From Klebsiella pneumoniae (GTDB lineage: Bacteria > Myxococcota_A > UBA796 > SXON01): DNA of 49,045 nucleotides. Of the stretch, positions 1-16,971 are shown piece after piece (positions within the stretch are counted from its first letter, which is position 1; every line of letters begins with the position of its first letter). The position numbers were made by a program, and so were the translations under genes. A model generated the notes under the pieces. The model did not search any database. It was given only the letters and a program-made list of their open reading frames with translations, and was not told the origin of the DNA. The stretch spans positions 1 to 49,045 of the forward strand of contig CAMBIK010000002.1 in the NCBI GenBank assembly GCA_945867435.1. Direction: 5' to 3'.

Positions 1-304
1 TCAGGATTGGACCGACACTTCCCGGCCTACCGACATGTCGGAGGGCAACCAGGATGACACCTGGATGAGCACCATGGACTACTCCATGGAACCTCTGTAC
101 TGGCCGCTTCCGGCCGCCGTAAACTCTGCCTTTATCGCGGATGATGTGCTCGGCCCCTCGTTGTACTCCCTCTCCTGGGATGTCGAGGACATGGACACCG
201 ATGGCACATGGACCCGCATCCGGGTCCGTTGCACCTACGACGATGCCACCTTCGACACCCGGCACGGCACGACGATCTCCTCCTTCCGCTTTCGGGACGC
301 CTGA
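1..304 (+). CDS. 3' end of a gene entering from upstream; probably a type IV pilus minor pilin (PilV-like) C-terminus
   Basis: Frame 2 is open from nt 2 to TGA 302-304 (track ORF 35-304 is only its ATG-bounded tail). The stop overlaps the ATG of the following prepilin-type gene (ATGA). The family call rests only on its position ahead of pilW/pilX/pilY1-like genes. Confidence 0.5.
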   Translation, partial: QDWTDTSRPTDMSEGNQDDTWMSTMDYSMEPLYWPLPAAVNSAFIADDVLGPSLYSLSWDVEDMDTDGTWTRIRVRCTYDDATFDTRHGTTISSFRFRDA

Positions 305-1380
305 TGCGCCGCCGCGGCTTCACCCTCACCGAGCTGATGATCGCGCTGGCGATCGGGACCTTCGTGGTGGGCGCGCTCTATTCCTTGTTCACCGTGCAGC
401 TCAAGCAGTTCGTCTACCAGGACCTGCAGATGGAGATGCATCAGAACATTCGGTTGGCGATGGATATTCTCACGCGGACCGGGCGGACCGCCGGCTTGGG
501 AACCACCGGCCGAGTCTCGGGCGCGCTCGGCTACAGCTCTGGCAGCGCCGCCGACGCCGCGACCCTGCCGGCGGTCATCTCGTACAACAACACGGGCCCG
601 AACTCGTCAGATGCGATCACGATCGTGTCCCAGGACCCGAACCTGATCATGTTCGCCGACCCTGATTCGCTACGTCAATGCAGCGATACCACCGTGGTGT
701 TCGATCTCGATCGTCCAGGGTATGCCGACAAGGTGGGCGAGCTGGTGCTGAACGAGTACCTGCTGTGCAGCGACCTTTCAAACCCGACGCAGAAGCGTTC
801 GTTGCTGTGGCCGATGGCCAGCGACGGGGATGCGTCCACGGGGCAGGTCACCGTGAACGACGGCACCACCAACTACAGCGACTTCCTGGATGCTTGTCCC
901 TTGGGCGAGAACATGCCGGTGGCGATGCAGTGTTCCCGCGGTGAAGTGGTCACCTTTTACATCGACGCGGATGACAGCGACGGTGTGGGCTCCGGCTCGT
1001 CGGAACACCCTGTGCTGATGATGGATCTCGACTTTGAATCCCCCGATGACGATGACGTGCCGGTGGTCGACAACGTGGAGGACATGCAGGTTCAATACTG
1101 CTTCTTCGGCGGCGATTGCAGCAGCACCACCAGCACCGGGTGGGGGGATACGGTCGATTCCTACTCCGACACCGACAACGGCAATGACCCGGATGACCTG
1201 TACATGATCCGGTTCACCCTGGTGATTCGGTCGGGTCGCGAAGACATGAACGACATGTTTCCGGGCGCGCCGTTGGCGGTGGCGGGCAACACGCCTTCCT
1301 CCACGGCGGATCACTACTATCGACAGGTTCTTTCCTCCGAGGTGACCGTGCGCAACATGCGGATGCTCTCATGGCTGTAG
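304..1380 (+). CDS. pilW: Type IV pilus minor pilin/assembly protein, PilW-like (prepilin N-terminal cleavage/methylation domain)
   Basis: ATG 304 gives MRRRGFTLTELMIALAIGTFVVGALYSLF, a G/FTLxE prepilin peptidase site with Glu+5 and a hydrophobic helix. The track start at 208 is rejected because that segment is Arg/His-rich and overlaps the upstream gene. Size (~358 aa) and gene order fit PilW. Confidence 0.8.
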   Translation: MRRRGFTLTELMIALAIGTFVVGALYSLFTVQLKQFVYQDLQMEMHQNIRLAMDILTRTGRTAGLGTTGRVSGALGYSSGSAADAATLPAVISYNNTGPNSSDAITIVSQDPNLIMFADPDSLRQCSDTTVVFDLDRPGYADKVGELVLNEYLLCSDLSNPTQKRSLLWPMASDGDASTGQVTVNDGTTNYSDFLDACPLGENMPVAMQCSRGEVVTFYIDADDSDGVGSGSSEHPVLMMDLDFESPDDDDVPVVDNVEDMQVQYCFFGGDCSSTTSTGWGDTVDSYSDTDNGNDPDDLYMIRFTLVIRSGREDMNDMFPGAPLAVAGNTPSSTADHYYRQVLSSEVTVRNMRMLSWL

Positions 1381-1895
1381 GCACCTCCCGTCGCGGCTAC
1401 GCGATGCTCGTCGCCCTGATCCTCATCGCCATCATCACGATCATCGGCGCCACATCGCTCAGCATCGCTGGCGTTGATCAACGTGTGGCGAACTATACGC
1501 GACGGCATTCGGCGGTCACCAGCGCGGCCGATGCGGGTGGCGAACATGCGAGGTTCCAGCTAATGTATTCCCTCCCGGTCGACGAAGGTTGGGACACCGG
1601 GTCTCCCGCCACCTTCGTGGAAGAAGTCGAAAGCGAGGACTGGTTCGAAGGCGAAACCACCGCGCTCCCGCTGGGCACCTACGATGTCACAGCTGTGTTC
1701 GCGAAGTGTGGTTCGCCCCCCAAGGGCTACAGCACGGAGGAAGGCAATCAGGGATTCCGGTCGGACTACTGGGAGATGGATTCGCACTCGTGGTTCGAAT
1801 CGACCGCCTCGGCGGATGCGCAGGTCAACCCTTCAGAAGCCCGAGTCGCGACCATGCTCCGCAAGGTCATGCGCGGCTCGTGCAAGGTCCGGTGA
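1371..1895 (+). CDS. pilX: Type IV pilus minor pilin, PilX-like
   Basis: ATG 1371 overlaps the pilW end by 10 nt. The N-terminus RRGYAMLVALILIAIITIIGATSLS is a PilX_N-type hydrophobic segment. The protein is 174 aa and sits between pilW-like and pilY1-like genes. Confidence 0.7.
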   Translation: MAVGTSRRGYAMLVALILIAIITIIGATSLSIAGVDQRVANYTRRHSAVTSAADAGGEHARFQLMYSLPVDEGWDTGSPATFVEEVESEDWFEGETTALPLGTYDVTAVFAKCGSPPKGYSTEEGNQGFRSDYWEMDSHSWFESTASADAQVNPSEARVATMLRKVMRGSCKVR

Positions 1896-1899
1896 ACCC

Positions 1900-4800
1900 A
1901 TGAACACGTCCTTCCTTTCCACGGCCGCGCTGCTGCTGCTTGCGTTCCCCGGCGCGGCGCAGGCCGGCGCGGGCGGCTCGGCCACCGTGTCCGAGGCGCT
2001 CTCCACCAAGCAGGCCGTTCCGCCTGCCATCCTGTTTGTGATCGATCGGTCCGTCGATATGGATTCGCCCTGCTTTTCGGGCAGCACCACGACCTGCTTG
2101 GAAGATGCGGTCGATCTCGTGCGGCAGATGTCTCGGCATTACGACGAAGTGAAGTTTGGCGTGGTGGGAACGGCAGACGATGCCTCCACCCGCGACTACT
2201 ACCCCATCGCCCCGGTGGGCAGCACCTACTCGCAAATCTCGGCCGCTCTCACGACTTTGACCGCTTCCACGGGCTCTACCCGGAACCTAAGCGAGACCCT
2301 CGATAACGTCAGCAGCAGCTACCTCAAGTTGACTGCCGCCGAGGACTGGGTGGATGACGACGCCGATGGCTTCGACGGCGATTGGGATGAATCCCCCTAT
2401 TCCTACTACTGTTCTTCGGTCTACATCGTGGTGCTGACCTCGGGCCGGCCCACCGACGATGACGAAGCAGATTCGTCCGCGGCGTCAGCGGCCCCACTTA
2501 GCGACATCCTGTGCGACGCCTCCGGGTACGTCGGCACCGTGGTCCTCGACACCTACTGTCGGTACGACAACGTCGTGACCCACATGTACAACACCGACCA
2601 CAGCTCGCTCACAGACACCCAGCGAGCTCCGGTCTCCACCATCGCGCTCGGCATGGACCCCTCCAGCAGCACCGACGACTCCATCGCCGACGCGGTTTTC
2701 GCAAGCGCCTCTGACAACACGGACAGCGAGGGCCTCTACACCAACGCGACCACGAAAGACGAGGCGGTGAGCGCGATGCTCACGGTGCTCGCCGATTTGA
2801 TGTCAGGCGTGTATGCTCGGTCGAACCCGGTCATTGCCCAGAACGGCGAATACCTCCTCTACACCTACTACGAGCTGACCGGGGACAATCCCCTCGCCGA
2901 GGGTCACGTCCTCGCCTACGAGATCGACAGCGATCCGACCAGCTCCACCTACGGCGAAATCATCTACTATGCCGGTGATCCGTACGACGACTACCTCGGC
3001 GCGGTCTGGGATGGCGGCTGGCTGTTGTACTCCCGCATTGCCGATGCCGCCGAGCTCAACAACGACGACATGGACGGCTTCAACCAGCGCGACATCTACT
3101 TCTACGACAGCACATTTGCGTCCTACATGACCGGCGATGCGGCCCAACGGCGTCTCAGCTTCGACCAGGAGATGGTGGACCAAGTGGGCACCAACGTGCC
3201 GGTGAGCCTCATCCTCGACGATGCGGTGGATGGCGCGGGTGCCCTTTCATCCCCTGAGTACGACCTGAACCGCGATGACGCCGTGAACGCCGACGACGTG
3301 CAGACCCTGGTCGACTTCACTCGCGGCGTGTCGTCCACGCAGTTCCGCTACCTCGACCTCGAGCGCGGTCGGTGGAAGCTGCAGGATTCTCCGTACAGCG
3401 CGCCTACCGTCGTGACCAGGCGCAGCGAAACCTATTCGAACAGCACCTCCTACCGGACCTTCCTCGACCTGCTCGAAGTCGAGGAGATGCCCGATCTGGT
3501 GCTCATCGCGGCGAACGATGGCCTGCTTCACGCATTCGCCCTCACCGACGACGAAAATACCCCGACAGACGACGAGTCCGGCGAGGAGCTGTGGGCCTGG
3601 GTGCCCGACACGCTCATCCTGCGTGAGCGTGGGAACGCTTGGTCCAACGGCCTGATCGACTCGATGTTGTACGGTCGCACCTACTTGTTCGACGGAACCC
3701 CCGTTGTGGAGGATGTGTGGATCGATGCCGACGAAGACGGCGTGAAGGATTGCGGGGTTGATCTTGATGTCTGCGAGTGGCGCCGCGTGCTGGTGGTGCA
3801 GCAGAGCTTCGGCGGTTCGCGCACCCTGGCGTTGGATATTACCTATACCGATGCTCCACAGTTCTTGTGGGAACAGACCAACACCAGCGACTACTCGGCC
3901 ATGGGCTACACCACGAGCCGTCCCAGCATCTTCAACGTGTACGACTACACGAATTCCACGAGCCCCACCGACCGGTGGGTGGCGTTCTGGGGCGGTGGTC
4001 GCGCCGCGAACTACGACTCAGGGACCACGAACTACTACGATTCGGTCGAAGCGAACCTCTACATGTGGGCGATGCAGGACTCGGCATTCTCGTCGAGCGC
4101 GACCCAGTTCTCGGTGACGGGAGACAACATCGGGTCCGAACACCCGGACTACGCTTCGGCCAGTGCCAGTCTCGACCTCGATTCGGATGGCCGGCTTGAG
4201 TACACCTACATCTCCGCGCCGCCCGCCGTGGTCGACGTAGACTCCGACGGCGATGCCGACGTGGCGTATTTCCCGGTCACGCTCGCCTACGACCCCGACT
4301 ACGGTCCGGGCTCCACGAGCGGGACTCCCGGTCAGTCGTACATTTACAAGGCGTTGATCGATCAGACCGACCCTGACGACCTTGAATGGTGTGAATTCTA
4401 CGACCCGGTCGTGGGCGCGGAACCGACCAGCACGACCGACACCGGCACCGTGAGCACGGGGTCTGCGGTGGCCTACGGCAGTCGTCCGGAAATCTACTAC
4501 TCGATTACCACCTCCTGGATGACTAACGGGCACCTTGGCGTGTACTGGGGAAGCGGCTCGCCTTTCGAGTCCAACACCGACAGCACACGCGGGGTTTTCT
4601 TCTTCATGAAGGACACCGACCCTTCCACCTGCACCACGGCAAAGGCGCTCACCTGTGGCACGGAAGAAGGTGGCTTCTACCAACTTGAATCGGGAGAGAG
4701 GCTGACCAGCGATCCCCTCGTGTACGGGGGCAACGTGTACTTTGCGACCTACACGCCGAACGCGGACGTGTGTACGCAGGGGGAGGGCCGAATCTACGGC

Positions 4801-5022
4801 TTGAACTATGAGGATTGCGGCCCAGGGCTGGATACGACCGGCGATGGCGCGGCCACCACAGCGGACGACGACTACATCGCCGCCACCGGGTTTGTGTCGA
4901 ACGTGGCCGTAGGCAGCAACGGCAAGCTCTACTACGCCGCCGGAACCGACCTCGTCGTCATCGATTCCGTGACCGACGCCTTTGCAGGAACGGCCATGGT
5001 CGGCTGGATGGAGATGTACTGA
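1900..5022 (+). CDS. pilY1: PilY1-like type IV pilus tip-associated adhesin/assembly protein (vWA-like N-terminal region, C-terminal PilY1 propeller-type region)
   Basis: ATG 1900, 4 nt after the pilX stop, gives the signal peptide MNTSFLSTAALLLLAFPGAAQA. Motifs: ILFVIDRSVDMDS (vWA/MIDAS-like), LIAANDGLLHAF (PilY1-type), and DVDSDGDAD (4234-4260, DxDxDGxxD Ca-site type). The track start at 1684 is rejected because that segment is Arg-rich and overlaps pilX. Confidence 0.85.
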   Translation: MNTSFLSTAALLLLAFPGAAQAGAGGSATVSEALSTKQAVPPAILFVIDRSVDMDSPCFSGSTTTCLEDAVDLVRQMSRHYDEVKFGVVGTADDASTRDYYPIAPVGSTYSQISAALTTLTASTGSTRNLSETLDNVSSSYLKLTAAEDWVDDDADGFDGDWDESPYSYYCSSVYIVVLTSGRPTDDDEADSSAASAAPLSDILCDASGYVGTVVLDTYCRYDNVVTHMYNTDHSSLTDTQRAPVSTIALGMDPSSSTDDSIADAVFASASDNTDSEGLYTNATTKDEAVSAMLTVLADLMSGVYARSNPVIAQNGEYLLYTYYELTGDNPLAEGHVLAYEIDSDPTSSTYGEIIYYAGDPYDDYLGAVWDGGWLLYSRIADAAELNNDDMDGFNQRDIYFYDSTFASYMTGDAAQRRLSFDQEMVDQVGTNVPVSLILDDAVDGAGALSSPEYDLNRDDAVNADDVQTLVDFTRGVSSTQFRYLDLERGRWKLQDSPYSAPTVVTRRSETYSNSTSYRTFLDLLEVEEMPDLVLIAANDGLLHAFALTDDENTPTDDESGEELWAWVPDTLILRERGNAWSNGLIDSMLYGRTYLFDGTPVVEDVWIDADEDGVKDCGVDLDVCEWRRVLVVQQSFGGSRTLALDITYTDAPQFLWEQTNTSDYSAMGYTTSRPSIFNVYDYTNSTSPTDRWVAFWGGGRAANYDSGTTNYYDSVEANLYMWAMQDSAFSSSATQFSVTGDNIGSEHPDYASASASLDLDSDGRLEYTYISAPPAVVDVDSDGDADVAYFPVTLAYDPDYGPGSTSGTPGQSYIYKALIDQTDPDDLEWCEFYDPVVGAEPTSTTDTGTVSTGSAVAYGSRPEIYYSITTSWMTNGHLGVYWGSGSPFESNTDSTRGVFFFMKDTDPSTCTTAKALTCGTEEGGFYQLESGERLTSDPLVYGGNVYFATYTPNADVCTQGEGRIYGLNYEDCGPGLDTTGDGAATTADDDYIAATGFVSNVAVGSNGKLYYAAGTDLVVIDSVTDAFAGTAMVGWMEMY

Positions 5023-5874: not shown

Positions 5875-6681
5875 TTATGCGCCCTCGAATCCCGGGGCGG
5901 CCGCAGCGATGCGTCGCCAACCGGCGAGGTTGACTTGCTCGGCCCGGGCACCGGGGTCGATGCCGGCTGCCACACACAGGGCCATGGCCCCTTCGCGACC
6001 GAGACTGGAGCCGAAGGCGTTGGTCAGGGTCTTTCGCCGGGCCGAGAAGCCGAGGCGAACGATGCGGTCGAAGCCTTCGCCAGTCGGGCCGCCAAAGTCT
6101 GGGCTCGAATGCGGCGTGAACCCCACGACCGCGCTGTGGACCTTGGGTGCCGGATGGAAGGCGCCTGGCGGCAGGGAGACCAATCGTTCCACCGCAGCTC
6201 GCGCCTGAATTTGCACGGACAGCGAGCCGTAAACCTTCGATCCGCTATCGGATTCGATGCGGTCGGCGACCTCGCGCTGAAACATCAACGCCATCGGCAC
6301 CCGCAGGCCCAGCAGGCGCAGGCAGAGCGGCGTGGCGATGTTGTAGGGGAGGTTGGCCACCACGCGGTCTACGGTGGGAAGAGCGATCCGGAGGGCATCC
6401 CCCTGGATGAGCTCCACGTCGGGCACGACCTCGGGCAGGGCCGCGGCGAGGTCGCGGTCCAGCTCGATCGCGACGATGGTGGCACCCGCGCGAGCGAGCG
6501 AAGCCGTGAGGACACCCAGGCCCGGCCCGATCTCCAGGACCCGTTCTCCGGGGCGCACGCCGGCCCGCAGTACAATCGTATCAGCCAGCGCGTCTGAAAC
6601 GAGGAAGTTTTGCCCGAAGCGACGGCGCGCGCGGCCCTCGAGGTCTCGAAGTCGCTGCGCGGGGTGCAGGGTGAACGTCAT
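5875..6681 (-). CDS. rsmA: 16S rRNA (adenine1518/1519-N6)-dimethyltransferase RsmA/KsgA
   Basis: ATG 6681 gives MTFTLHP. Motifs: RFGQNFL, VLEIGPGLGVLT (SAM site), NLPYNI. The ATG overlaps the tsaD stop (ATGA, 6678-6681). The track start at 6792 is rejected because that segment is Arg/Gly/Pro-rich. Confidence 0.92.
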   Translation of the reverse strand: MTFTLHPAQRLRDLEGRARRRFGQNFLVSDALADTIVLRAGVRPGERVLEIGPGLGVLTASLARAGATIVAIELDRDLAAALPEVVPDVELIQGDALRIALPTVDRVVANLPYNIATPLCLRLLGLRVPMALMFQREVADRIESDSGSKVYGSLSVQIQARAAVERLVSLPPGAFHPAPKVHSAVVGFTPHSSPDFGGPTGEGFDRIVRLGFSARRKTLTNAFGSSLGREGAMALCVAAGIDPGARAEQVNLAGWRRIAAAAPGFEGA

Positions 6682-7664
6682 GCGCCGACCTCCCATCGGG
6701 CGCGGGCCGAGCGGTCGAGCGGCCACGGTGCCTCGCCTTGGGCCCACCGGGCCGCGGCCACATGGCCGATCATTGCGGCGTTGTCGGTGCAACGAGATTT
6801 CGGCGGCAAGAAAACCTCCAAGCCTGTATCGACCAGGGCCCGGCGAATGTGTTCGTTGGCTGCGGCGCCGCCCCCGATGGCGAGCCGCCTCAGACCCGTT
6901 TGGGCGACCCCCTGCTTCACCCGGTCCACCAGGTAGCGCGCGACCGTGTCTTGAAAGGAGGCCGCGACATCCGCCGGGGAGGTCTCCGGGTGGCGGTCAA
7001 TCCATGTGCGGACGGCGGTTTTCAGGCCGGAGAAGCTCAGGTCCATCGGCCGAGCAGCGGGGCGGGGAAGCGGAAACGCCACCGCGCGCGGGTTGCCTGA
7101 CTTCGCCAGAGCTTCGATGGCCGGACCGCCGGGGTAGCCCAGACCGAGCATCCTTGCGACCTTGTCGAAAGCCTCGCCCACGGCGTCGTCTGTGGTTGCG
7201 CACACCGCCCGGTAGTCTGCCATCTTCCTGGCTTCATAGAGTGTCGTATGACCGCCGGAGATCACCAGGGAGAGGAAGGGAAAGACCGGGGAGGGGTCGT
7301 CGAGCTGGGCGCTCAGCAGGTGGCCTTCCAGGTGGTTCACGCCAAAATACGGCACCCCCCAGCCGACGGCCGCCGCCTTGCCGAACGAGAGCCCCACCAG
7401 CACCGCGCCGATGAGCCCCGGACCGGCGGTGGCCGCCACGAGATCAGGTCGGTCCAACCCGGCCTCCATGAGCGCGGCGCGCACGGTCGGCACCATCTGT
7501 TCGGCGTGCGCACGCGACGCGATCTCGGGCACGACCCCGCCGTAGCGTGCGTGCATCGCCTGGGAGTGCACGACGTCTGCGAGGATGCGGGTGCGGCCCT
7601 GCTCATGCCTCACCACGGCCACGGCGGTCTCGTCACAGCTGGTTTCAATGGCAAGAACGTTCAC
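6678..7664 (-). CDS. tsaD: tRNA N6-adenosine threonylcarbamoyltransferase TsaD (Kae1/Gcp)
   Basis: GTG 7664 gives (M)NVLAIETSCDETAVAVV. Motifs: YGGVVPEIASRAH, NHLEGHLL. The upstream part of the track ORF (to 7958) overlaps the haem gene and is Arg-rich. Confidence 0.92.
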   Translation of the reverse strand: MNVLAIETSCDETAVAVVRHEQGRTRILADVVHSQAMHARYGGVVPEIASRAHAEQMVPTVRAALMEAGLDRPDLVAATAGPGLIGAVLVGLSFGKAAAVGWGVPYFGVNHLEGHLLSAQLDDPSPVFPFLSLVISGGHTTLYEARKMADYRAVCATTDDAVGEAFDKVARMLGLGYPGGPAIEALAKSGNPRAVAFPLPRPAARPMDLSFSGLKTAVRTWIDRHPETSPADVAASFQDTVARYLVDRVKQGVAQTGLRRLAIGGGAAANEHIRRALVDTGLEVFLPPKSRCTDNAAMIGHVAAARWAQGEAPWPLDRSARARWEVGA

Positions 7665-7671
7665 GGTGCGA

Positions 7672-9210
7672 TCAATGCTGCACGCGAAGCCGGTAGGTGG
7701 CTTCGTTAAAACGGCCGCCATCCTGCCGCGAATCGTGGCATTGGATGCACTGGGTGGTCGGCGGCGAGCGCACCATGTGTGCGGCAGTCGGCTGCGCCAC
7801 ATGATCGCGACCCGCTCCGTGGCAACTTTCACAGCCGACATCGGCCAGCCCGTGCAGGTCGCGCGGGTCGTGCGGACCCTCCTCGCTCTTGGCCCCCGTG
7901 ACATGGCAGCCGAAGCAATCGCGGTCGAACTGCCGTTCATCTGCCACCAAGGCCGCATAAGCTCGTGCGTGCCCGGTGGTGGACCACTGGCGATACGCCT
8001 CGACGTGACAGCCCTGACAAATGGCGTTGCCTACGAAGGGGCCCATCCCGACGATGCCGCCCGCCGTGGGAAGGGGCGTGGCGTCCGTTTGGGCCGGCTC
8101 GCCGGTAGCGTCGGTTCCCGGGTTTCCGGTGAAGGCGGCCTTGAATGCGGCGACGAGGGCCTGGGTTGGGGCGTGTTCGCCGGCCTCCGTTCCCAGGGAG
8201 CGCAGCTGGTTCCGGACGGTGCCGTGGAGCCCCGGTACCGCCAGCGAAGCTTCGAGCGCCGCCCGGGCTGTGGCCGCCTTGCCCGTCCAAAATTCTTCTT
8301 GGCGGGTGAGCCGTTCGATCGACTTCGGGTTGTCTGCCGCGGCCTTGCGAGCCGCGAGATCCTTCAGCTTGGCATCGGCGGCATCGACGTCGGAAGCGTG
8401 GGACGCCCCTTCACCGGAATCCCGCCAGCTGATTGCGCCCGGAGTCAGCGCCACATCGAGGAGTCCGAGCAGGCGGCCCCGGGAGCCGGAGCTGAGCGCG
8501 AGCCCACCGTTAGCCATCGGTGCGGGGTTGAGCAGACCTTCGATGGAGTCGCTGCGCACCATGAAGTCAACGCCGGTCGCGCGCTTGGCGAGGTCCAAGT
8601 CCCTCCCGCGTTCGAGGTCGGCCAGCACGACGACAACCACGTCGTCTCGGATGACCGATTCGAGCACTTGGCCGGGATCCCGAACCGTGCATCCCTCAAG
8701 CTTGAGGCTCGGGCTAGCGATCCCGAAAACCTTGATTTTTACTCCACCCTTTTCGAACTCCCGGACCGTGGGCCAGGGGAGCGGGTCGGCACAGTCCATG
8801 TTGCTCACGACGTAAGGCAGCGAATGGGCGGCACCGTTCTGCTCGACAAAGGCCCGACCCAACGCAAAGTCGCCTCGACCGGGGAGCATGGCGTCGATGC
8901 CGCCCAGGGCGAACGCCTCGGCGATCAGCTGGGCTTTGGCCTCTTTCTCCAGCCGCTCGTCTTCGCCGAGGGTGTGGCTGCGCCGGAACGCGTGCCCCGC
9001 ATCCACCACAAGCAGGTCACCGCGAGGGAACGTGGCCAGAACTGAGTTTCTCCGGGACAGACCGCCCTGGGGGTGCTTGGGTCAGCCACAGGGTTCGATC
9101 TCGCCATCCACCGCGCCCTGATAGGCGAGGGTGAAGGCGGGCGACGTGGACGAAGTCGCTACCGGTTCGGTCGTTGTAGAACAGGCGGAGAGCAGCGCGG
9201 CCAGGATCAT
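7672..9210 (-). CDS. Lipoprotein with a degenerate metallophosphoesterase/5'-nucleotidase-like domain and a C-terminal tetrahaem cytochrome c domain. It is full length only if the in-frame TGA at 9082-9084 is decoded (candidate selenocysteine)
   Basis: The track ORF 7672-9009 (GTG start) has four CxxCH sites (CQGCH, CFGCH, CESCH, CIQCH) but no signal peptide. In the same frame upstream, ATG 9210 overlaps the DUF4340 gene stop (ATGA). It encodes MILAALLSAC (lipobox LSAC) ...GAVDGEIEPCG, then TGA, then PKHPQGGLSRR...DLLVVDAGHAF. G/C3 bias is continuous across the TGA. The conservative alternative is 7672-9009 alone. Confidence 0.6.
9052..9070 (-). promoter_or_regulatory. Candidate bacterial SECIS-like hairpin downstream of the in-frame UGA
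   Basis: RNA with U of UGA numbered +1: UGACCCAAGCACCCCCAGGGCGGUCUGUCCCGG. C15,C16 pair with G33,G32. A17 is unpaired. G18-G20 pair with C31-C29. The apical loop contains G22 G23 U24 C25 U26. The 2 bp / bulge at +17 / stem / GGUC-loop geometry matches what I recall for E. coli fdhF. Confidence 0.5.
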
Positions 9211-10760
9211 GGTGCGCTTCCCGTTTTCGGTGATTCCTGTTTCCGTTTTTCGATACGCTCCTGGCGCTCCCGTTCCCGCTCCGCGCGTGTCTCGGCATCG
9301 ATCCTCGCCTTACGCTCCTCCTCTTCGGCCTCCCCGCGAGCGTGGCGTCCATGTTCGCGATGCAGGTCCTTCAGCACATCGATGAGTCCATCTTCCACGA
9401 TGTACACCTCGGGGTGCCCCATGTGGCGTGCGTACCATCGGGCGTGCTCTCGCCCTTCTTCATCCACCTTGGGGGCGGCCGCCTTCCCCAGCACGATTGT
9501 GGCGGTGCGGGCGTCGGCGTCCACCATCGCCACGCGGGCAATCGGGTGGTCAAAACCGTAGTCGGCGTCGGATGTCACGGTCGAGGTCACGAACTCGTCG
9601 CTCTCGATGTCGGCGGCCCTGCCCGCCACGCGGCGCGGGGTGCTGCCCGGGACGATGACGCCATCGTTCCACTGCCATTCGTCGGCCGCGTGAAGCACGG
9701 TCACGCTGCCGGCGAGCGCGGCATCATCGGGGTCGAGAGGGAAAAACTCGCTGGTGAGCGAGGTGAGCTTGTTCTGGTCCATCCTTGCGAACTGCCGGAG
9801 GCGGAACTCGGCGGGATCGCGCAGGTAGTCGTCGAGGAACACGTCGCGCACGAGGTACACAAACGGTTCGCCCACCAGCCGCGCGTAGGCCAAGGGGTAT
9901 TCGCCATCCTTCTCGCCGGAGTCTTTGCCGAGCTCCAGACCGAGGGGCTCCCGGCCACCCGAGAACGTGATGGTGATGGTGGCGCGTGGTGCGGCAAGGC
10001 CGAAGGTGTCCACATCCGCAGGTGTGCTCTCGACAAAGCGGATGGCCTTCATCGCGCTCACTCGGCCGAGCAGGCCGCGCACTTCCATGTCGGCAGCCGC
10101 AAAGGCCACGGGTTCCAGCAGATCCCAGAACCGTTCGCCGGCACGCTGAATCTTGAGCCGCTTTCCTCCAGGTAGAACGGCGGCAATGCCATCCACATCC
10201 TTCGAGTCGAAGCTGGCGAAGCGCCGCTCGCGGAACTCGTTGAGCTCCAGGGAGTAGTAGTCGACCGCGGACTTCTTCACGGTGAAGATCGCTTCGTCGC
10301 CCGTGCGTTGGATGTAGAAGCTGACGCCCGAAGGATTGGGATCTCCGGCGTCGAAGTCGAGGACTTGCCCGTCCCTCAGCGTTAGCTTCACATGGATCGC
10401 GTTGGGGCCGAGGCCGTAGAGAGCGCCCTCGTCGGCTTCGTCCACCACCGAGGCGCGGGAAACGAGGTCGTGAAGCTGGTGTTTGACCCGGTTCACCATC
10501 TGCCGGCTGGCGCGCATCTCGGTGCCTTCGATCCACCAGCTGTCGGGGCGTTCGACCAGCGAGATGGTGCCGTCGGGCCGGGTGACATCGATCCTCAGGA
10601 GGTCGGCCTTTTCGAACGTGAACAGGGCCACGCCCTCGACTTTCTTGAGTTCAGCCTTGCGTTGCAGCGGCGTGAGCTCGGTCGGCTTCAGCGAAAAGTA
10701 GCCAGCGACCAGCAAGAGCAGGGCCACCAGCGCGATCAGGGTGCTGCGGAACGGCTTCAT
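9207..10760 (-). CDS. DUF4340-like membrane-anchored protein (accessory to GldG-type ABC systems) with a charged E/R/K-rich C-terminal tail
   Basis: ATG 10760 gives MKPFRSTLIALVALLLLVAGYF (N-terminal TM). The pattern ...LFTFEKADLLRIDVTRPDGTISLVERPDSWWIEG... is typical of DUF4340. The tail reads EAEEEERKARIDAETRAERERERQERIEKRKQE. It lies 2 nt downstream of the GldG-like gene. Confidence 0.75.
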   Translation of the reverse strand: MKPFRSTLIALVALLLLVAGYFSLKPTELTPLQRKAELKKVEGVALFTFEKADLLRIDVTRPDGTISLVERPDSWWIEGTEMRASRQMVNRVKHQLHDLVSRASVVDEADEGALYGLGPNAIHVKLTLRDGQVLDFDAGDPNPSGVSFYIQRTGDEAIFTVKKSAVDYYSLELNEFRERRFASFDSKDVDGIAAVLPGGKRLKIQRAGERFWDLLEPVAFAAADMEVRGLLGRVSAMKAIRFVESTPADVDTFGLAAPRATITITFSGGREPLGLELGKDSGEKDGEYPLAYARLVGEPFVYLVRDVFLDDYLRDPAEFRLRQFARMDQNKLTSLTSEFFPLDPDDAALAGSVTVLHAADEWQWNDGVIVPGSTPRRVAGRAADIESDEFVTSTVTSDADYGFDHPIARVAMVDADARTATIVLGKAAAPKVDEEGREHARWYARHMGHPEVYIVEDGLIDVLKDLHREHGRHARGEAEEEERKARIDAETRAERERERQERIEKRKQESPKTGSAP

Positions 10761-10762
10761 GG

Positions 10763-12220
10763 CTACGCCCCCCGCCGAGAGGCCCACACGGCCGCGCCAA
10801 GGAGCAGCACCGACATCGGACCGATGCCGATCGCGAGCCAGCGAATCTGCTCGCCATCTTCGGCCGTCAGCGCCAGCCTTCGCACCGAAGCCGGGCGCCC
10901 CACGACGGAGATCCGTTCTTCATCGCCCACCAGCCAGCGAAAGCTGTTGAGAATAAAGCTGGCATTTCCTGGTCCTTCGCCGAGCAGCGAGTTTGTGAAC
11001 ACGTCGGCATCGCCGACCAGCAGCACGCGGGCTGCCCCGTTGGTGACCAGCCCGGAGTCGCGCGACACGTCGAGCGCGACCGCCATGGTGGCCGGACCCG
11101 CGCCGTCGATGTCGGGTTCGAACTGCGCCTGGCCGTTCTTGATCTCGCCGCCCCTGTCGATCCAGCCATCGCGACTGGTCTCCAACACGATGGTGCTGCG
11201 CACGCCCTCCATCGCGGGCACGGAGGTTTGGACCGGCGCGATGCCGCTGAGCACCGTGACCAGGCTGTCTTCAGCGAGATCCTTGGTGATCGGGTGGGAC
11301 TTGTACCGCGGCACAGGGCGATCGGGGTAGGGGAAAACCAGCAGCTTGTCGAGAACCCGACCGCTCGGCACCGCCACGCCCAACCGCGCGAACAGGTTCG
11401 GCACTGGAGAGTCGGGGTCTACCGCCAACAGGACCGCGCCGCCCCCGCTCAGGTAGGCGAGGAGCAGATCCTCCTCCAGGGCGGGGATGGGCACCTTGGG
11501 GCGCAATACGGCTACGGCCGCGGCGTCGTCTGGCACCCGGGGAACCGCCATGTCGCGCTGGCGCATGAAGTCGAGTCGCTTGAGCTCGTAGTCGTCCTGC
11601 GCGAGCACCGCGGCCGCTTCAGAGAGACCTCCGAGGTCGTGGTTTTCGGGATCGAGCTCGCCGTGGCCCACCAGCGCGTACACGACGCGCTTGTTTTCCG
11701 CCATCAGCTGCGAGAACGCACGGTTTACCGCCTGTTCCCCCAGGAATTCCAAGTGGCGCGCTTCGGCTTTCCCCACGCGCTTGAACAGCTCGCGGTCCTT
11801 GATGTCGACCCGCGCCGCGCCGCGCTGCACCACGACGGTGCTGTAGTCGGTGACCCCGAGCTTCTCGGCCGTAAGGCGGTCTTTGTCGAAATCGATGAGG
11901 TGCACGTCGACCATCTGGGAGTTGTAGTCCAGCTCCTCCAGCAAATCCTCGAGGGCGCGGTCCTTGAAGTAGGTCTCCTTTTTCCCCCGCTGGCCGCTGA
12001 ACGCCGTGACCGTCACGCGGGCCCCCCCTTGATCCAGCAGGGCGAGCTTGGTGCGAGTGTCGGCCAGGAGCACGGAGCCCTGGTCGGCGCTCAGGTCGGC
12101 GCGCACGCGTCGAAGGTCGGCCAGAAGGTACCCCACGCAGGCACAAGCGAGGACGAACGCGCTTACGAGCAGCGCGTTGCTTCCCGCCGCCAACCGCCGT
12201 TGTGATTGTTTTAGCGCCAT
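10763..12220 (-). CDS. GldG-like auxiliary component of an ABC-2 transporter (ABC_transp_aux family)
   Basis: It has an N-terminal TM (ALLVSAFVLACACVGYLL) and a C-terminal TM (IRWLAIGIGPMSVLLLGAAVW). The central region reads VTVTAFSGQRGKKETYFKDRALEDLLEELDYNSQMVDVHLIDFDKD, typical of GldG-like proteins. It overlaps the permease gene end by 10 nt. Confidence 0.8.
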   Translation of the reverse strand: MALKQSQRRLAAGSNALLVSAFVLACACVGYLLADLRRVRADLSADQGSVLLADTRTKLALLDQGGARVTVTAFSGQRGKKETYFKDRALEDLLEELDYNSQMVDVHLIDFDKDRLTAEKLGVTDYSTVVVQRGAARVDIKDRELFKRVGKAEARHLEFLGEQAVNRAFSQLMAENKRVVYALVGHGELDPENHDLGGLSEAAAVLAQDDYELKRLDFMRQRDMAVPRVPDDAAAVAVLRPKVPIPALEEDLLLAYLSGGGAVLLAVDPDSPVPNLFARLGVAVPSGRVLDKLLVFPYPDRPVPRYKSHPITKDLAEDSLVTVLSGIAPVQTSVPAMEGVRSTIVLETSRDGWIDRGGEIKNGQAQFEPDIDGAGPATMAVALDVSRDSGLVTNGAARVLLVGDADVFTNSLLGEGPGNASFILNSFRWLVGDEERISVVGRPASVRRLALTAEDGEQIRWLAIGIGPMSVLLLGAAVWASRRGA

Positions 12221-12921
12221 CGACGCGACTCAAGCGAACGGGTGGTGAGGAACAGGAAGCAGAAGGCCATCGCGAGGAAATAGTAGATGTCGGCGCTGTC
12301 GAGGATCCCGCGGCCGAACGAGTCGAGATGGAGAAGCACGCCGAAGGGCTGCAGGCGGGCGCCCCACTCGTCTCCTACCAGCGCTTCCGCGCGGGAGACA
12401 AGCCAGAAGGGCAGCAGGATCAGGATTCCGCTGAGCCCCGCGGCCAGCTGGTCGTCCCAGAGCGATGAGGTGAACAGGCCGGCTGCGCAGAATGCGCCGG
12501 CCGCAAGGAACAACCCCAGGTAGGTGGTGGTGACCACTCCCCAGTCTGGATCGCCGTAGTAGGCGAGGATCAAGGGGAGCACACCGGTGCCCACGAACAT
12601 CAGGAGGCAGAGCGTAAGCGAAGCCAACCATTTGCCGATCACCATGGCGAACGGCGAGATGGGCGAGGTCAGCAGCATCTCGAGGGTGCCCTGCCGACGT
12701 TCTTCCGCGAAGTGGCGCATGGTCAACATCGGGAGGATGAAGAGCTCGGCGATCGCGAGGTTGCTGGAGAGGACACGCAGGCTCGCTTCCCCGGTAAGCG
12801 TAATGCCGAGGTAGAAGAATAATCCGCTTAGAAACATGAATACGGCGAGGAATGCGTAGGCCGTGGGGTTTACGGCGTACACGCGCATCTCCTTCTTCCA
12901 GATGGTGAAGACGGCGGTCAT
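12211..12921 (-). CDS. ABC-2 family transporter permease (GldF-like)
   Basis: MTAVFTIWKKEMRVYAVNPTAYAFLAVFMFLSGLFFY followed by about 6 hydrophobic segments. The ATG overlaps the ATPase stop (12918-12921). Confidence 0.85.
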   Translation of the reverse strand: MTAVFTIWKKEMRVYAVNPTAYAFLAVFMFLSGLFFYLGITLTGEASLRVLSSNLAIAELFILPMLTMRHFAEERRQGTLEMLLTSPISPFAMVIGKWLASLTLCLLMFVGTGVLPLILAYYGDPDWGVVTTTYLGLFLAAGAFCAAGLFTSSLWDDQLAAGLSGILILLPFWLVSRAEALVGDEWGARLQPFGVLLHLDSFGRGILDSADIYYFLAMAFCFLFLTTRSLESRRWR

Positions 12922-13847
12922 GAGGCTTCTCCTTCCCGACCCACGATCGCGATGAACGCATCTTCAAGGGTGGGCATGCGGCGTTCCAGGGCGCGAAGCT
13001 GCCACGACCCTGCGGCGGCGTTCGCGGCCAGCATCTCGCGGGGGTCGCCCGAGGCGCGCACCCTCCAGGCCTCCCATCCATCCACATTACCCATCGGTTC
13101 CACCACTTCGACCCCCGGCAGCTTTCCGAGCTGCGGACCAGCGATTCCGCGAACCTCGACGTAGGTCCAGGCGCCGCCGGGGGCGGAGGCGCGGAGCTCG
13201 GCGATGGTGCCGTTCGCCACCAGCTTGCCCCGGTTGATGACCACGGCACGGGGGCATAGCGCTTCGACTTCGGAGAGGATGTGTGTGCTGAGGATCACGG
13301 TGTGCGTGCCCGCCAGGGAGAGGATCAAGTCGCGAATCCCTCCGACCTGGGCGGGGTCGAGTCCGGAGGTGGGCTCGTCGAGGATGAGCACCGGCGGATC
13401 GTGGAGGATCGCCTGAGCGAAGCCCACGCGCTGCCGGTAGCCTTTGGAGAGCGAGCCGAGCAAGCGCCCCTCCCAGCCGCGCAACCCGACACGTTCCATC
13501 GTTTCGCCGATTCGCACGGAGCGAATCGCGCGGGGAATGGACCGGAGCTCGGCGCAGAACTGCAGGTAGGAACCGACGCTGAGTTCGGGGTAGAGTGGAG
13601 GTGTTTCCGGCAGATATCCCACCCGTTCGCGCACGGCGTAGGGCTCGTCGAACACATCAAAGCCGGCCACGAGAACCTCGCCCTCCGTGGCCGGGATGAA
13701 CCCGGTGAGGATGCGCATGGTGGTGGTCTTGCCGGCACCGTTTGGGCCCAGAAAGCCCATGATTTCGCCTTTGGGGACGGAAAACGTCACATCGTCCAGG
13801 ACGAGGCGGGAACCATAGGCCTTCCTCAGGCCGCGGACTTCAATCAT
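12918..13847 (-). CDS. ABC transporter ATP-binding protein (GldA-like)
   Basis: ATG 13847 gives MIEVRGLRKAYG. Motifs: Walker A GPNGAGKTT, signature LSKGYRQR, Walker B LILDEPTSGLD. The track start at 14108 is rejected because that extension lacks coding-like composition. Confidence 0.92.
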   Translation of the reverse strand: MIEVRGLRKAYGSRLVLDDVTFSVPKGEIMGFLGPNGAGKTTTMRILTGFIPATEGEVLVAGFDVFDEPYAVRERVGYLPETPPLYPELSVGSYLQFCAELRSIPRAIRSVRIGETMERVGLRGWEGRLLGSLSKGYRQRVGFAQAILHDPPVLILDEPTSGLDPAQVGGIRDLILSLAGTHTVILSTHILSEVEALCPRAVVINRGKLVANGTIAELRASAPGGAWTYVEVRGIAGPQLGKLPGVEVVEPMGNVDGWEAWRVRASGDPREMLAANAAAGSWQLRALERRMPTLEDAFIAIVGREGEAS

Positions 13848-16095: not shown

Positions 16096-16971
16096 TCAGC
16101 GAGGTCCTGACACGTTCTCTCCCACCCATTCCGACATGCCGCCGAGCACGTTGTGGATGTGAGTGGCGCCGATGCTGGTCATGAACTCGGCCGCCGACGC
16201 GCTCCGGCCCCCACCCTGACAGACAAAGATCAGGTGCGTGGTCTGGGCAAGCTCGGCGTAGCGGTGGGGAAGCTCGTCGACCGGGATGTGCCGCGCCAGG
16301 GGGGACCGGCCCCCCGAGAACTCCTTCAGAGTGCGAACATCGACCAGAATGTAGGGAGAATCCGCCTCATTCAGCAGCGCGAGAGCTTCCGTGCTGGTCA
16401 CGTCTTTCACGCCGGCCGAGGGGGCACCGGGGGTGCGAAGCTGGCCATCGCCGTGGCTGTTGGTGGAAGGGGCTGGCCCGGCGGGGGGAGGCGGTTCCCG
16501 GCCTTCGATGCCCGACACGATGTCCAGCAGGCGGTCCACTCCCGGGAGGGATCGCTCGTTGAACCGCACGGTGCCGTCTTTTCCGATAATGACGACCTGA
16601 TCGCGGCAGGATGCCCGCAGTCGACCCGAGGCGCGGTATCCGCGCGCTGCCATCGCGAACGGGTCGTAGAGCAAGAATGTTTCCACGCCGAGCTGCTGCC
16701 GCCACGCCCGGAGCGCATCGGTTCGAGACGTGTGTACGCCGAACAAGGCACAATCGAGGGCCTCAAAGCGGCTGCGCTCCCGATCCAGGCGCTGGAGCCA
16801 TTCGCCCGTGCCCTCGTTGAGCGAGCGCATGAACACGAGCATCACATGAAGGTTTCCCTTGAAGTCGGGCAGCTTGATCCACGTGCCGTCGTCGGCCGTG
16901 AGGGACAGCAGGGTCGCCGGGCTGCCGACGGGCAGCGGCTTCCAACGGATGAGATCGAGGAGGCTGGGCAT
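16096..16971 (-). CDS. Fusion of an AhpC/TSA (peroxiredoxin/BCP)-like thioredoxin-fold domain lacking the peroxidatic Cys and a rhodanese domain
   Basis: The N-terminal half follows the Prx pattern (LPDFKGNLHVMLVFMRSLNEGTGEW...FGVHTS...FLLYDP...VVIIGKDGTV), but EGTG occupies the usual T/S-x-x-C position. The C-terminal half has the rhodanese active-site loop FVCQGGGRSASAA. Confidence 0.75.
   Translation of the reverse strand: MPSLLDLIRWKPLPVGSPATLLSLTADDGTWIKLPDFKGNLHVMLVFMRSLNEGTGEWLQRLDRERSRFEALDCALFGVHTSRTDALRAWRQQLGVETFLLYDPFAMAARGYRASGRLRASCRDQVVIIGKDGTVRFNERSLPGVDRLLDIVSGIEGREPPPPAGPAPSTNSHGDGQLRTPGAPSAGVKDVTSTEALALLNEADSPYILVDVRTLKEFSGGRSPLARHIPVDELPHRYAELAQTTHLIFVCQGGGRSASAAEFMTSIGATHIHNVLGGMSEWVGENVSGPR

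Follow-up and report, generated by a model that had tools for sequence, protein, structure and literature searches.

The 'COG0737 UshA-like' family has been listed as a selenoprotein family with the motif CxU since 2008, when 76 selenocysteine (Sec) sequences and 92 Cys homologues were recorded in the GOS data (Zhang & Gladyshev 2008, PMC2398784). The CxU entry was retained in reviews of 2022 and 2026 (PMC9312934, PMC13188914). NCBIfam describes UshA-like (seleno)proteins with the model NF041198.1, 'UshA_like_PCGU'. In this study we analysed contig CAMBIK010000002.1 (49,045 nucleotides; the whole stretch is called the window), in which gene callers placed a 42-aa orphan open reading frame (ORF) and a leaderless 445-aa 'cytochrome' on either side of a TGA on the minus strand. 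Our analysis indicates, with a probability of about 0.92, that positions 9210-7672 (minus strand) are a single gene whose product, a periplasmic lipoprotein of 512 residues, belongs to the UshA-like CxU selenoprotein family and has Sec as residue 43, specified with the help of a downstream hairpin. The family has been catalogued since 2008; the window gene is an annotation correction and not a new family. The practical value of this study lies in that correction (9210-7672, Sec43), in the evidence for systematic mis-annotation and in the description of the selenocysteine insertion sequence (SECIS); the family is a widespread haem-linked selenoprotein.

Gene model of the interrupted reading frame

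The features of the full-length gene are as follows.

7672-9210, minus strand: complete coding sequence of the proposed selenoprotein (translation; end-to-end match to NF041198; reading frame kept before and after the TGA in orthologues)
9181-9210, minus strand: putative short lipoprotein signal peptide MILAALLSA-C (sequence; lipobox in full-length homologues)
9082-9090, minus strand: Cys41-Gly42-Sec43 (TGT GGC TGA), Sec codon at 9084-9082 (TGA or TGC/TGT in this column of homologous loci)
9052-9070, minus strand: predicted bacterial SECIS hairpin, nt 15-33 (loop position, Sec-specificity, covariation and bacterial SECIS constraints)
8416-9138, minus strand: UshA/SoxB-type domain of the calcineurin-like phosphoesterase fold, about residues 25-265, boundaries approximate (AlphaFold2 and Foldseek on the homologue P0052; profile against PDB)
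7675-8031, minus strand: cytochrome c554-like tetrahaem domain, residues 394-512 (PF13435, PDB 1bvb, invariant CxxCH columns)

Translation of the minus strand revealed 42 codons from ATG 9210, MILAALLSACSTTT...GEIEPCG, followed by TGA 9084-9082. The peptide encoded between this ATG and this TGA is MILAALLSACSTTTEPVATSSTSPAFTLAYQGAVDGEIEPCG. Past the TGA, 469 more codons are open in the same frame until the stop TGA 7674-7672, giving 512 residues plus the stop with Sec as residue 43, and no other in-frame TGA is present between start and stop. The start codon (9210-9208) overlaps the TGA stop (9209-9207) of an upstream 526-codon DUF4340 ORF in the form ATGA. An alternative upstream start was rejected, as no ATG, GTG or TTG occurs from the preceding in-frame stop to ATG 9210. 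The full-length model takes the place of the called ORFs of 42 aa (9082-9210) and 445 aa (7672-9009); the latter lies wholly within the 512-residue frame. Third-position GC content amounts to 0.76 in the codons preceding the TGA, 0.71 from the TGA to GTG 9009 and 0.78 in the remainder of the ORF.

A sequence-only reading of this stretch had proposed the start/stop overlap at 9207-9210, an in-frame TGA with no further stop before the GTG 9009 ORF, a 512-aa product and a G/C third-position bias on both sides of the TGA. It had also pointed out that, without read-through, a 445-aa protein with four CxxCH sites would have no signal peptide and a 42-aa orphan would be left over. Coordinates and translation bear out each of these points. 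Its further remark that there is no obvious Shine-Dalgarno sequence holds for GTG 9009, before which none was found; a small correction applies to ATG 9210, which has a weak GGGAAG 8-13 nt upstream.

The N-terminal segment contains the lipobox L-S-A-C at residues 7-10, with Cys10 (9183-9181) as the predicted lipidation site. All full-length homologues possess a lipobox, in the form of hydrophobic residues followed by [AG]C, and the overlapping start codon is kept in orthologues, which also show the lipobox.

TGA and cysteine codons at the column of residue 43 in homologues

About 160 loci (designated L001 and onwards) were collected from genome and metagenome collection listings and from single look-ups; the matches listed from the collections had at most 38% identity, and close orthologues came from the single look-ups. 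Locus counts in this study are counts among the matches listed, and for the column of residue 43 they include loci with the exact spacing C-G-x, five amino acids, G-G. The segment E-P-C-G-TGA (9096-9082) aligned with PCGC or PCG-TGA in 72 loci, with TGA in 28 and TGC/TGT in 44 of them. The 28 TGA loci comprise the window and 27 other independently assembled loci from several phyla, in which the arrangement of conserved peptide, TGA and conserved peptide recurs and the frame is conserved on both sides. Three orthologues of the window protein at 69%, 58% and 48% identity (L162, on contig BJHF01000002.1 of the MAG GCA_014191855.1, L163 and L164) all read GEIEPCG-TGA-P[KR]HPQGGLSRRN. Other TGA forms were found in marine Myxococcota-type MAGs (metagenome-assembled genomes; L001-L007, L082), in Desulfobulbia-type MAGs (L009-L013, L020, L021, L089, L092), in Blastocatellia-type loci (L019, L031, L078) and in one Krumholzibacteriia and one Eisenbacteria locus. 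The 20 codons ahead of the TGA showed protein-level conservation with synonymous changes in orthologues at 36-69% identity.

A protein search with the read-through product returned 72 proteins. Coverage of the query is 79-91% for almost all close ones, which start right after the TGA column, many of them with MGGLSRRN. Homologues with an intact N-terminus (among them P0052, P0059-63, P0066, P0121, P0171, P0191-193) have Cys exactly at the TGA column, as shown by P0052 (GEIEPCGCPKRPLGGLARRN), P0059 (IEPCGCRKDMLGG) and P0060 (YERCGCPVHPLGGLARR). When 1.84 billion cluster representatives were searched exhaustively with phmmer, 148 clusters reached E <= 1e-30. Of the 150 best representatives, nearly all begin, at residue 1-12 of their own sequence, opposite positions 6-67 of the post-TGA query; five reach upstream of the column and all five have Cys there (CGC or CSC). 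About 145 of the best 150 cluster representatives in this library are gene calls truncated at the N-terminus that start just after the TGA column, and this split or shortened annotation is systematic in the Sec branch of the family.

Judged from these alignments, the column of TGA against TGC/TGT is a textbook Sec/Cys pair within a CxU motif, the pairing by which the 'COG0737 UshA-like' family is recognised. The sequence-only reading had given a motif EPCGC...GGL.RR for related proteins and had named a Cys codon aligned with the TGA as the signature to look for. The motif is real and is carried by P0052 and the other homologues with an intact N-terminus, and the Cys codon is found in the 44 loci given above. 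The candidate selenocysteine gene proposed there is now supported by the Sec/Cys pair, by a Sec-specific SECIS-type hairpin and by the existing listing of the CxU family.

SECIS-type hairpin after the UGA

Nucleotides are numbered here with the U of the UGA as nt 1. The window mRNA reads U1GA CCC AAG CAC CCC CAG GGC GGU CUG UCC CGG, in which the pairs C15-G33, C16-G32, G18-C30, G19-C29, G20-U28 and C21-G27 can form a hairpin that starts 14 nt after the UGA and has the apical loop G22-G-U-C-U26 (9063-9059). Published constraints on bacterial SECIS elements are 3-9 nt for the loop, with G in its first two positions, 4 bp or more for the upper stem and 16-37 nt for the spacing (PMC13188914). The window hairpin falls within these constraints, with a 5-nt GGUCU loop, a 4-bp upper stem plus 2 bp past a mismatch and 18 nt from the UGA to the loop.

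Comparison of Sec and Cys genes revealed that the loop is specific to the Sec forms. GGTCT at nt 22-26 was present in 22 of 28 Sec genes and in 0 of 44 Cys genes (Fisher p = 2e-13). When the comparison was made among genes encoding Gly-Gly-Leu at the site, the Gly-Leu codons read GGTCTG in 20 of 26 Sec genes and in none of 24 Cys genes. In Sec forms the codons are fixed as GGC GGU CUG, whereas Cys forms use Gly-Gly-Leu codons freely; it is the conserved Gly-Gly-Leu of the UshA fold whose codons supply the apical loop of the fdhF-type SECIS. Analysis of a 7-bp helix in 19 aligned Sec genes showed 88.7% of cells paired against 79.3% in shuffles (0 of 500 shuffles reached the observed value), and pairing dropped to 29-54% when the partner strand was slid. 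Compensatory changes were found for pair 16-32 (C-G to U-A in six sequences) and for pair 17-31 (U-A to G-C in two sequences, via the choice of AGG or CGN as arginine codon).

The closest described element is that of Escherichia coli fdhF. In the E. coli SECIS, G23, U24 and a bulged U17 act in SelB binding. The sequence after the TGA in E. coli K-12 fdhF is TGACACGGCCCATCGGTTGCAGGTCTGCACC, with GGTCTG at nt 22-27, and the window gene has the same GGUCUG hexamer at the same position. The two genes share a short upper stem below the loop and an nt 17 without a pairing partner. The two elements differ in that nt 17 of the window is an A opposite C31, forming a mismatch instead of a bulge; the loop is closed by C21-G27 in the window and by A-U in fdhF; and the window element is without the long lower helix. 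The stem sequences are unrelated, as are the encoded proteins. Overall, the reading of UGA 9084-9082 as a Sec sense codon that would be directed by a short fdhF-like SECIS is strongly supported by these comparisons.

Where relatives carry Leu CUG or Arg CGG, the codon in the clade of the window (the window, L002 and L162-L164) is CAG for Gln, and this gives the A17/C31 mismatch, at the site of the bulged U17 of fdhF. Six Sec loci lack the GGUCU loop and have instead a G+C-rich stem of 7-10 bp with a GGC/GGA triloop at nt 32-34, the stems varying between loci. These are L019 (10049-10110), L031 (2814-2875), L078 (10049-10110), L033 (1103-1165), L064 (4853-4915) and L068 (10046-10110), and their hosts are Blastocatellia-type, Krumholzibacteriia, Eisenbacteria and one Myxococcales MAG. 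This arrangement seems to represent a second type of SECIS in a single protein family.

Family assignment and domain structure

The window protein matched NF041198.1 with E 2.4e-71 and 240.9 bits, residues 8-497 aligning in a single stretch with model positions 6-513 of 519, and it carries the P-C-G-U/P-C-G-C motif near the N-terminus. Among related loci, the scores were 235-263 bits for L004 (235.4), L162 (246.9), L019 and L064, 308.9 for L001, which is above the equivalog cutoff of 275 bits, and 638-657 for the Desulfobulbia-type Sec loci (L013, 638; L009, 657). The sub-cutoff score of the window protein together with its end-to-end match shows that it belongs to a divergent Myxococcota-type branch and, by the NCBI criterion, does not count as an equivalog. 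Since this branch lies just under the NCBIfam cutoff, annotation based on the cutoff would not name the window protein.

The window protein and the core members of NF041198 share the P-C-G-U motif, the UshA/SoxB-like domain and the C-terminal tetrahaem domain; Sec and Cys forms exist, and the GGUCU-loop hairpin is the same in L009 and L013. The differences are an identity of about 25% to Desulfobulbia-type core members, a lipobox in the window protein where translated L009 and L013 show no lipobox Cys before the mature region, and an upstream ABC-2/GldG-like/DUF4340 gene set (described below) that was not seen beside core members.

Homology to COG0737 was evident from the family profile, which matched structures of 5'-nucleotidase, YfkN and SoxB with E values of 1e-14 to 1e-22. 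The window protein alone gave a weak match to a SoxB model (2e-4, residues 61-260). An AlphaFold2 model was made for P0052, the closest full-length Cys homologue, in place of the window protein (pLDDT 86, pTM 0.85; low confidence in the CGC loop). A Foldseek search of the PDB with this model gave E. coli UshA, human CD73 and SoxB as best matches (E 3e-13 to 1e-11), and profile comparison with these enzymes (1e-14 to 4e-21) likewise indicated the same fold for the N-terminal domain.

The 'LEP' and 'GG.aRR' landmarks around the motif I loop of these enzymes are retained. The profile alignment paired 'LVHTNDTHAHLEPV...GGVARR' of the Thermus thermophilus 5'-nucleotidase with 'lvvasdlsgeiepCGCkkkelGGlarr', which places CxC/U in the loop between strand 1 and helix 1, the normal site of motif I (DxH). 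The motifs of dimetal phosphoesterases (DxH, GD, GNH[DE] and later histidines) are not kept. In the window protein DxH is replaced by D-G-E (VDGE), GD by G-H (DAGH) and GNHE by G-R-G-D (GRGDF), and no His or Asp of the N-terminal domain is invariant in alignments of 17 or 54 members. Long helices and the tetrahaem domain stand where UshA has its C-terminal substrate-binding domain. Given the loss of metal ligands and the replacement of the C-terminal domain, the window protein is unlikely to act as a phosphoesterase. C-x-[C/U] is the only invariant candidate catalytic motif of the N-terminal domain.

The Pfam scan gave Cytochrome_C554 (PF13435) as its sole match, at residues 398-465. The C-terminal domain with four CxxCH motifs resembles cytochrome c554 of Nitrosomonas europaea (PF13435, E 4e-13; PDB 1bvb, E 3e-20), the motifs being located at residues 398-402, 432-436, 460-464 and 488-492 (8019-8005, 7917-7903, 7833-7819 and 7749-7735). 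Unlike cytochrome c554, a free soluble carrier, the window version is fused to the UshA-like selenocysteine domain on a lipoprotein.

Evidence against the assignment and alternative explanations

Several observations weigh against a Sec codon in this gene. Homologues of SelA, SelB and SelD were not found in the window (tblastn with E. coli queries, 1e-3), and ARAGORN detected no tRNA-Sec, and no tRNA at all, in the 49-kb window, which is the whole contig (ERZ27280301:k141_945131). The window hairpin contains the A17/C31 mismatch (9068/9054) and is weak (-7.4 kcal/mol), being no stabler than dinucleotide shuffles (z = +0.43). The minimum free energy of nt 10-48 after the codon did not differ between Sec and Cys genes (Mann-Whitney p = 0.87). 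The signal peptide has nine residues ahead of the Cys and no K or R after the Met, which makes its n-region atypically short. The NF041198 score of 240.9 bits misses the equivalog cutoff, and a literature search found no experiment on any member of the UshA-like CxU family.

With p = 0.87 and z = +0.43, folding energy was rejected as a discriminator of SECIS elements. As it fails to separate Sec from Cys genes, the case for the SECIS rests on position, loop identity, Sec-specificity and covariation. A gathering-threshold Rfam scan of the window gave no match.

When E. coli SelA, SelB and SelD were compared by tblastn with the window and the approximately 160 loci (1.97 Mb), the sole match was a SelA gene in L030, next to a Cys-form gene and not informative here. 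Since the TGA and the SECIS are conserved across relatives, we infer that the window organism has Sec machinery. The L030 homologue (11287-12618, minus strand in the locus; 43% identity to E. coli SelA) belongs to an Acidobacteriota MAG, where it follows a Cys-form (TGT) family gene at a downstream distance of about 4.3 kb; a Sec-capable genome thus retains the Cys form.

Three other explanations of the TGA were considered. In one, the UGA would be read through without Sec, by near-cognate tRNA-Trp or by Cys insertion, giving a full-length protein that is not a selenoprotein. The lack of Sec machinery in the 49-kb window and the unremarkable thermodynamics of the hairpin are consistent with this. 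However, Cys occurs in all non-TGA homologues, which is the Sec signature; the fdhF-type GGUCU loop lies at the canonical distance and is specific to the TGA forms; and the family is curated as a selenoprotein family. Read-through of this kind is thus very improbable. A reassignment of TGA as a sense codon throughout the genome was rejected, since 9 of the 15 neighbouring genes end in TGA as their ordinary stop. A scan of the window for other TGA-interrupted ORFs with a high third-position GC content on both sides gave nothing but noise at 65.6% GC, and the true case fell below the threshold.

Equally improbable is a true stop, by which the TGA would end a 42-aa lipopeptide and the cytochrome would be initiated separately at or near GTG 9009. 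This matches the output of automatic gene callers, yet GTG 9009, without a Shine-Dalgarno sequence, lies in the middle of the conserved domain, and a start there would cut off strand 1, the CGU loop and helix 1. The cytochrome product would have no export signal despite its four CxxCH motifs. Furthermore, the 24 codons from the TGA to GTG 9009 are conserved and coding, and Cys-form homologues are single polypeptides.

The least probable explanation, an error of sequencing or assembly or a nonsense mutation of recent origin (a pseudogene, or a true TGC/TGT), could be entertained for a single metagenome contig, but it is effectively excluded by the same TGA column in the 27 other independent assemblies, including the orthologues at 69%, 58% and 48% identity, by flanks under purifying selection, by the co-occurrence of hairpin and TGA, and by the 39-44-aa orphan ORF called at the same place in four of five close relatives looked up, the fifth (L162) having the same TGA without a called short ORF.

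Results from this comparison indicate that the TGA is almost certainly the selenocysteine codon of one 512-residue haem-carrying lipoprotein that was split by gene callers. The window gene is a real but mis-called selenoprotein gene.

Proposed mechanism and function

In the proposed mechanism, UGA 9084-9082 would not act as a stop; the GGUCU hairpin would recruit SelB with GTP and Sec-tRNA(Sec), and Sec would be inserted as residue 43 in Pro-Cys-Gly-Sec. The product would be exported through the Sec translocon by its N-terminal lipobox and lipidated at Cys10, and four c-type haems would be attached in the periplasm by the Ccm system. Cys41-Gly-Sec43 would then occupy the former motif I/dimetal loop of a remodelled phosphoesterase fold. 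A selenol/thiol (selenenylsulfide) redox or ligand-binding site is most likely because Cys-x-Sec is the only invariant reactive motif of the domain, and electrons may pass via the c554-like tetrahaem domain.

A more specific and rather speculative proposal, which we consider unlikely, is that the protein is a functionally distinct Myxococcota-type periplasmic selenoenzyme, with Cys-Gly-Sec in the old dimetal site wired to four haems and acting with the translationally coupled ABC-2/GldG-like/DUF4340 system encoded upstream. The dyad may then serve as a selenolate that catalyses the reaction of a sulfur, selenium or metalloid substrate, or else as a selenolate axial haem ligand. Two to three invariant histidines occur outside the CxxCH motifs (H414 and H470; H512 in part of the family), and such a small number of distal histidines for four haems leaves room for the axial ligand idea. 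As the papers searched contained no experimental study of a family member, any defined chemistry would be new.

Genomic neighbourhood

The neighbouring genes are as follows.

9207-13847, minus strand: co-oriented upstream genes with overlapping ends (gene calls, Pfam; same order in orthologues), consisting of the next four
12918-13847, minus strand: ABC ATPase (gene call, Pfam)
12211-12921, minus strand: ABC-2 permease (gene call, Pfam)
10763-12220, minus strand: ABC_transp_aux/GldG-like (gene call, Pfam)
9207-10760, minus strand: DUF4340 (gene call, Pfam)
6678-7721, minus strand: tsaD, called from a start that lies within the selenoprotein gene, giving a 50-nt overlap at the 3' end of the latter (7672-7721)

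The ABC ATPase, ABC-2, GldG-like and DUF4340 genes probably form one operon with the selenoprotein gene. The upstream gene order is the same in orthologues down to 48% identity, and 10 Myxococcota-type loci, with identity down to 36%, have homologues of the upstream ORFs. Throughout the Myxococcota-type clade the selenoprotein gene always comes directly after this gene set, overlapping it by 4 nt, and tsaD, rsmA and a PP2C phosphatase gene lie behind it; the window likewise has rsmA and then the PP2C gene downstream of tsaD. Comparison of loci across phyla revealed no common neighbour gene, the one cross-phylum cluster being a generic ABC ATPase. The other neighbours are clade-specific: Planctomycetota/Armatimonadota/Scalindua-type loci carry an uncharacterised ORF of 655 aa, Desulfobulbia carry an ORF for an AAA+ ATPase with a Walker A motif, and the Myxococcota type has ABC-2/GldG/DUF4340.

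The junction between the selenoprotein gene and tsaD ranges in orthologues from overlaps of 50 nt, 4 nt and 1 nt to a gap of 25 nt. Because of this variability, the tsaD start in the window may be mis-called.

Four contigs with the Myxococcota-type operon or a family gene (L002, L004, L005 and L022) bear the titles 'uncultured Enterobacterales', 'Alphaproteobacteria bacterium ... MYXO-46', 'Cognaticolwellia sp.' and 'Enterobacteriaceae'. These taxonomic labels of MAGs look unreliable.

Further upstream in the window, a 291-aa gene (16096-16971, minus strand) encodes a fused AhpC/TSA peroxiredoxin and rhodanese and has no in-frame TGA; its position is kept in every orthologous contig examined. 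On the plus strand, positions 304-5022 contain a PilW/N-methyl pseudopilin gene, a 174-aa ORF and a gene for a 1040-aa protein without a Pfam match. These genes are conserved in orthologous contigs and may represent a set of type IV pilus minor-pilin and tip proteins.

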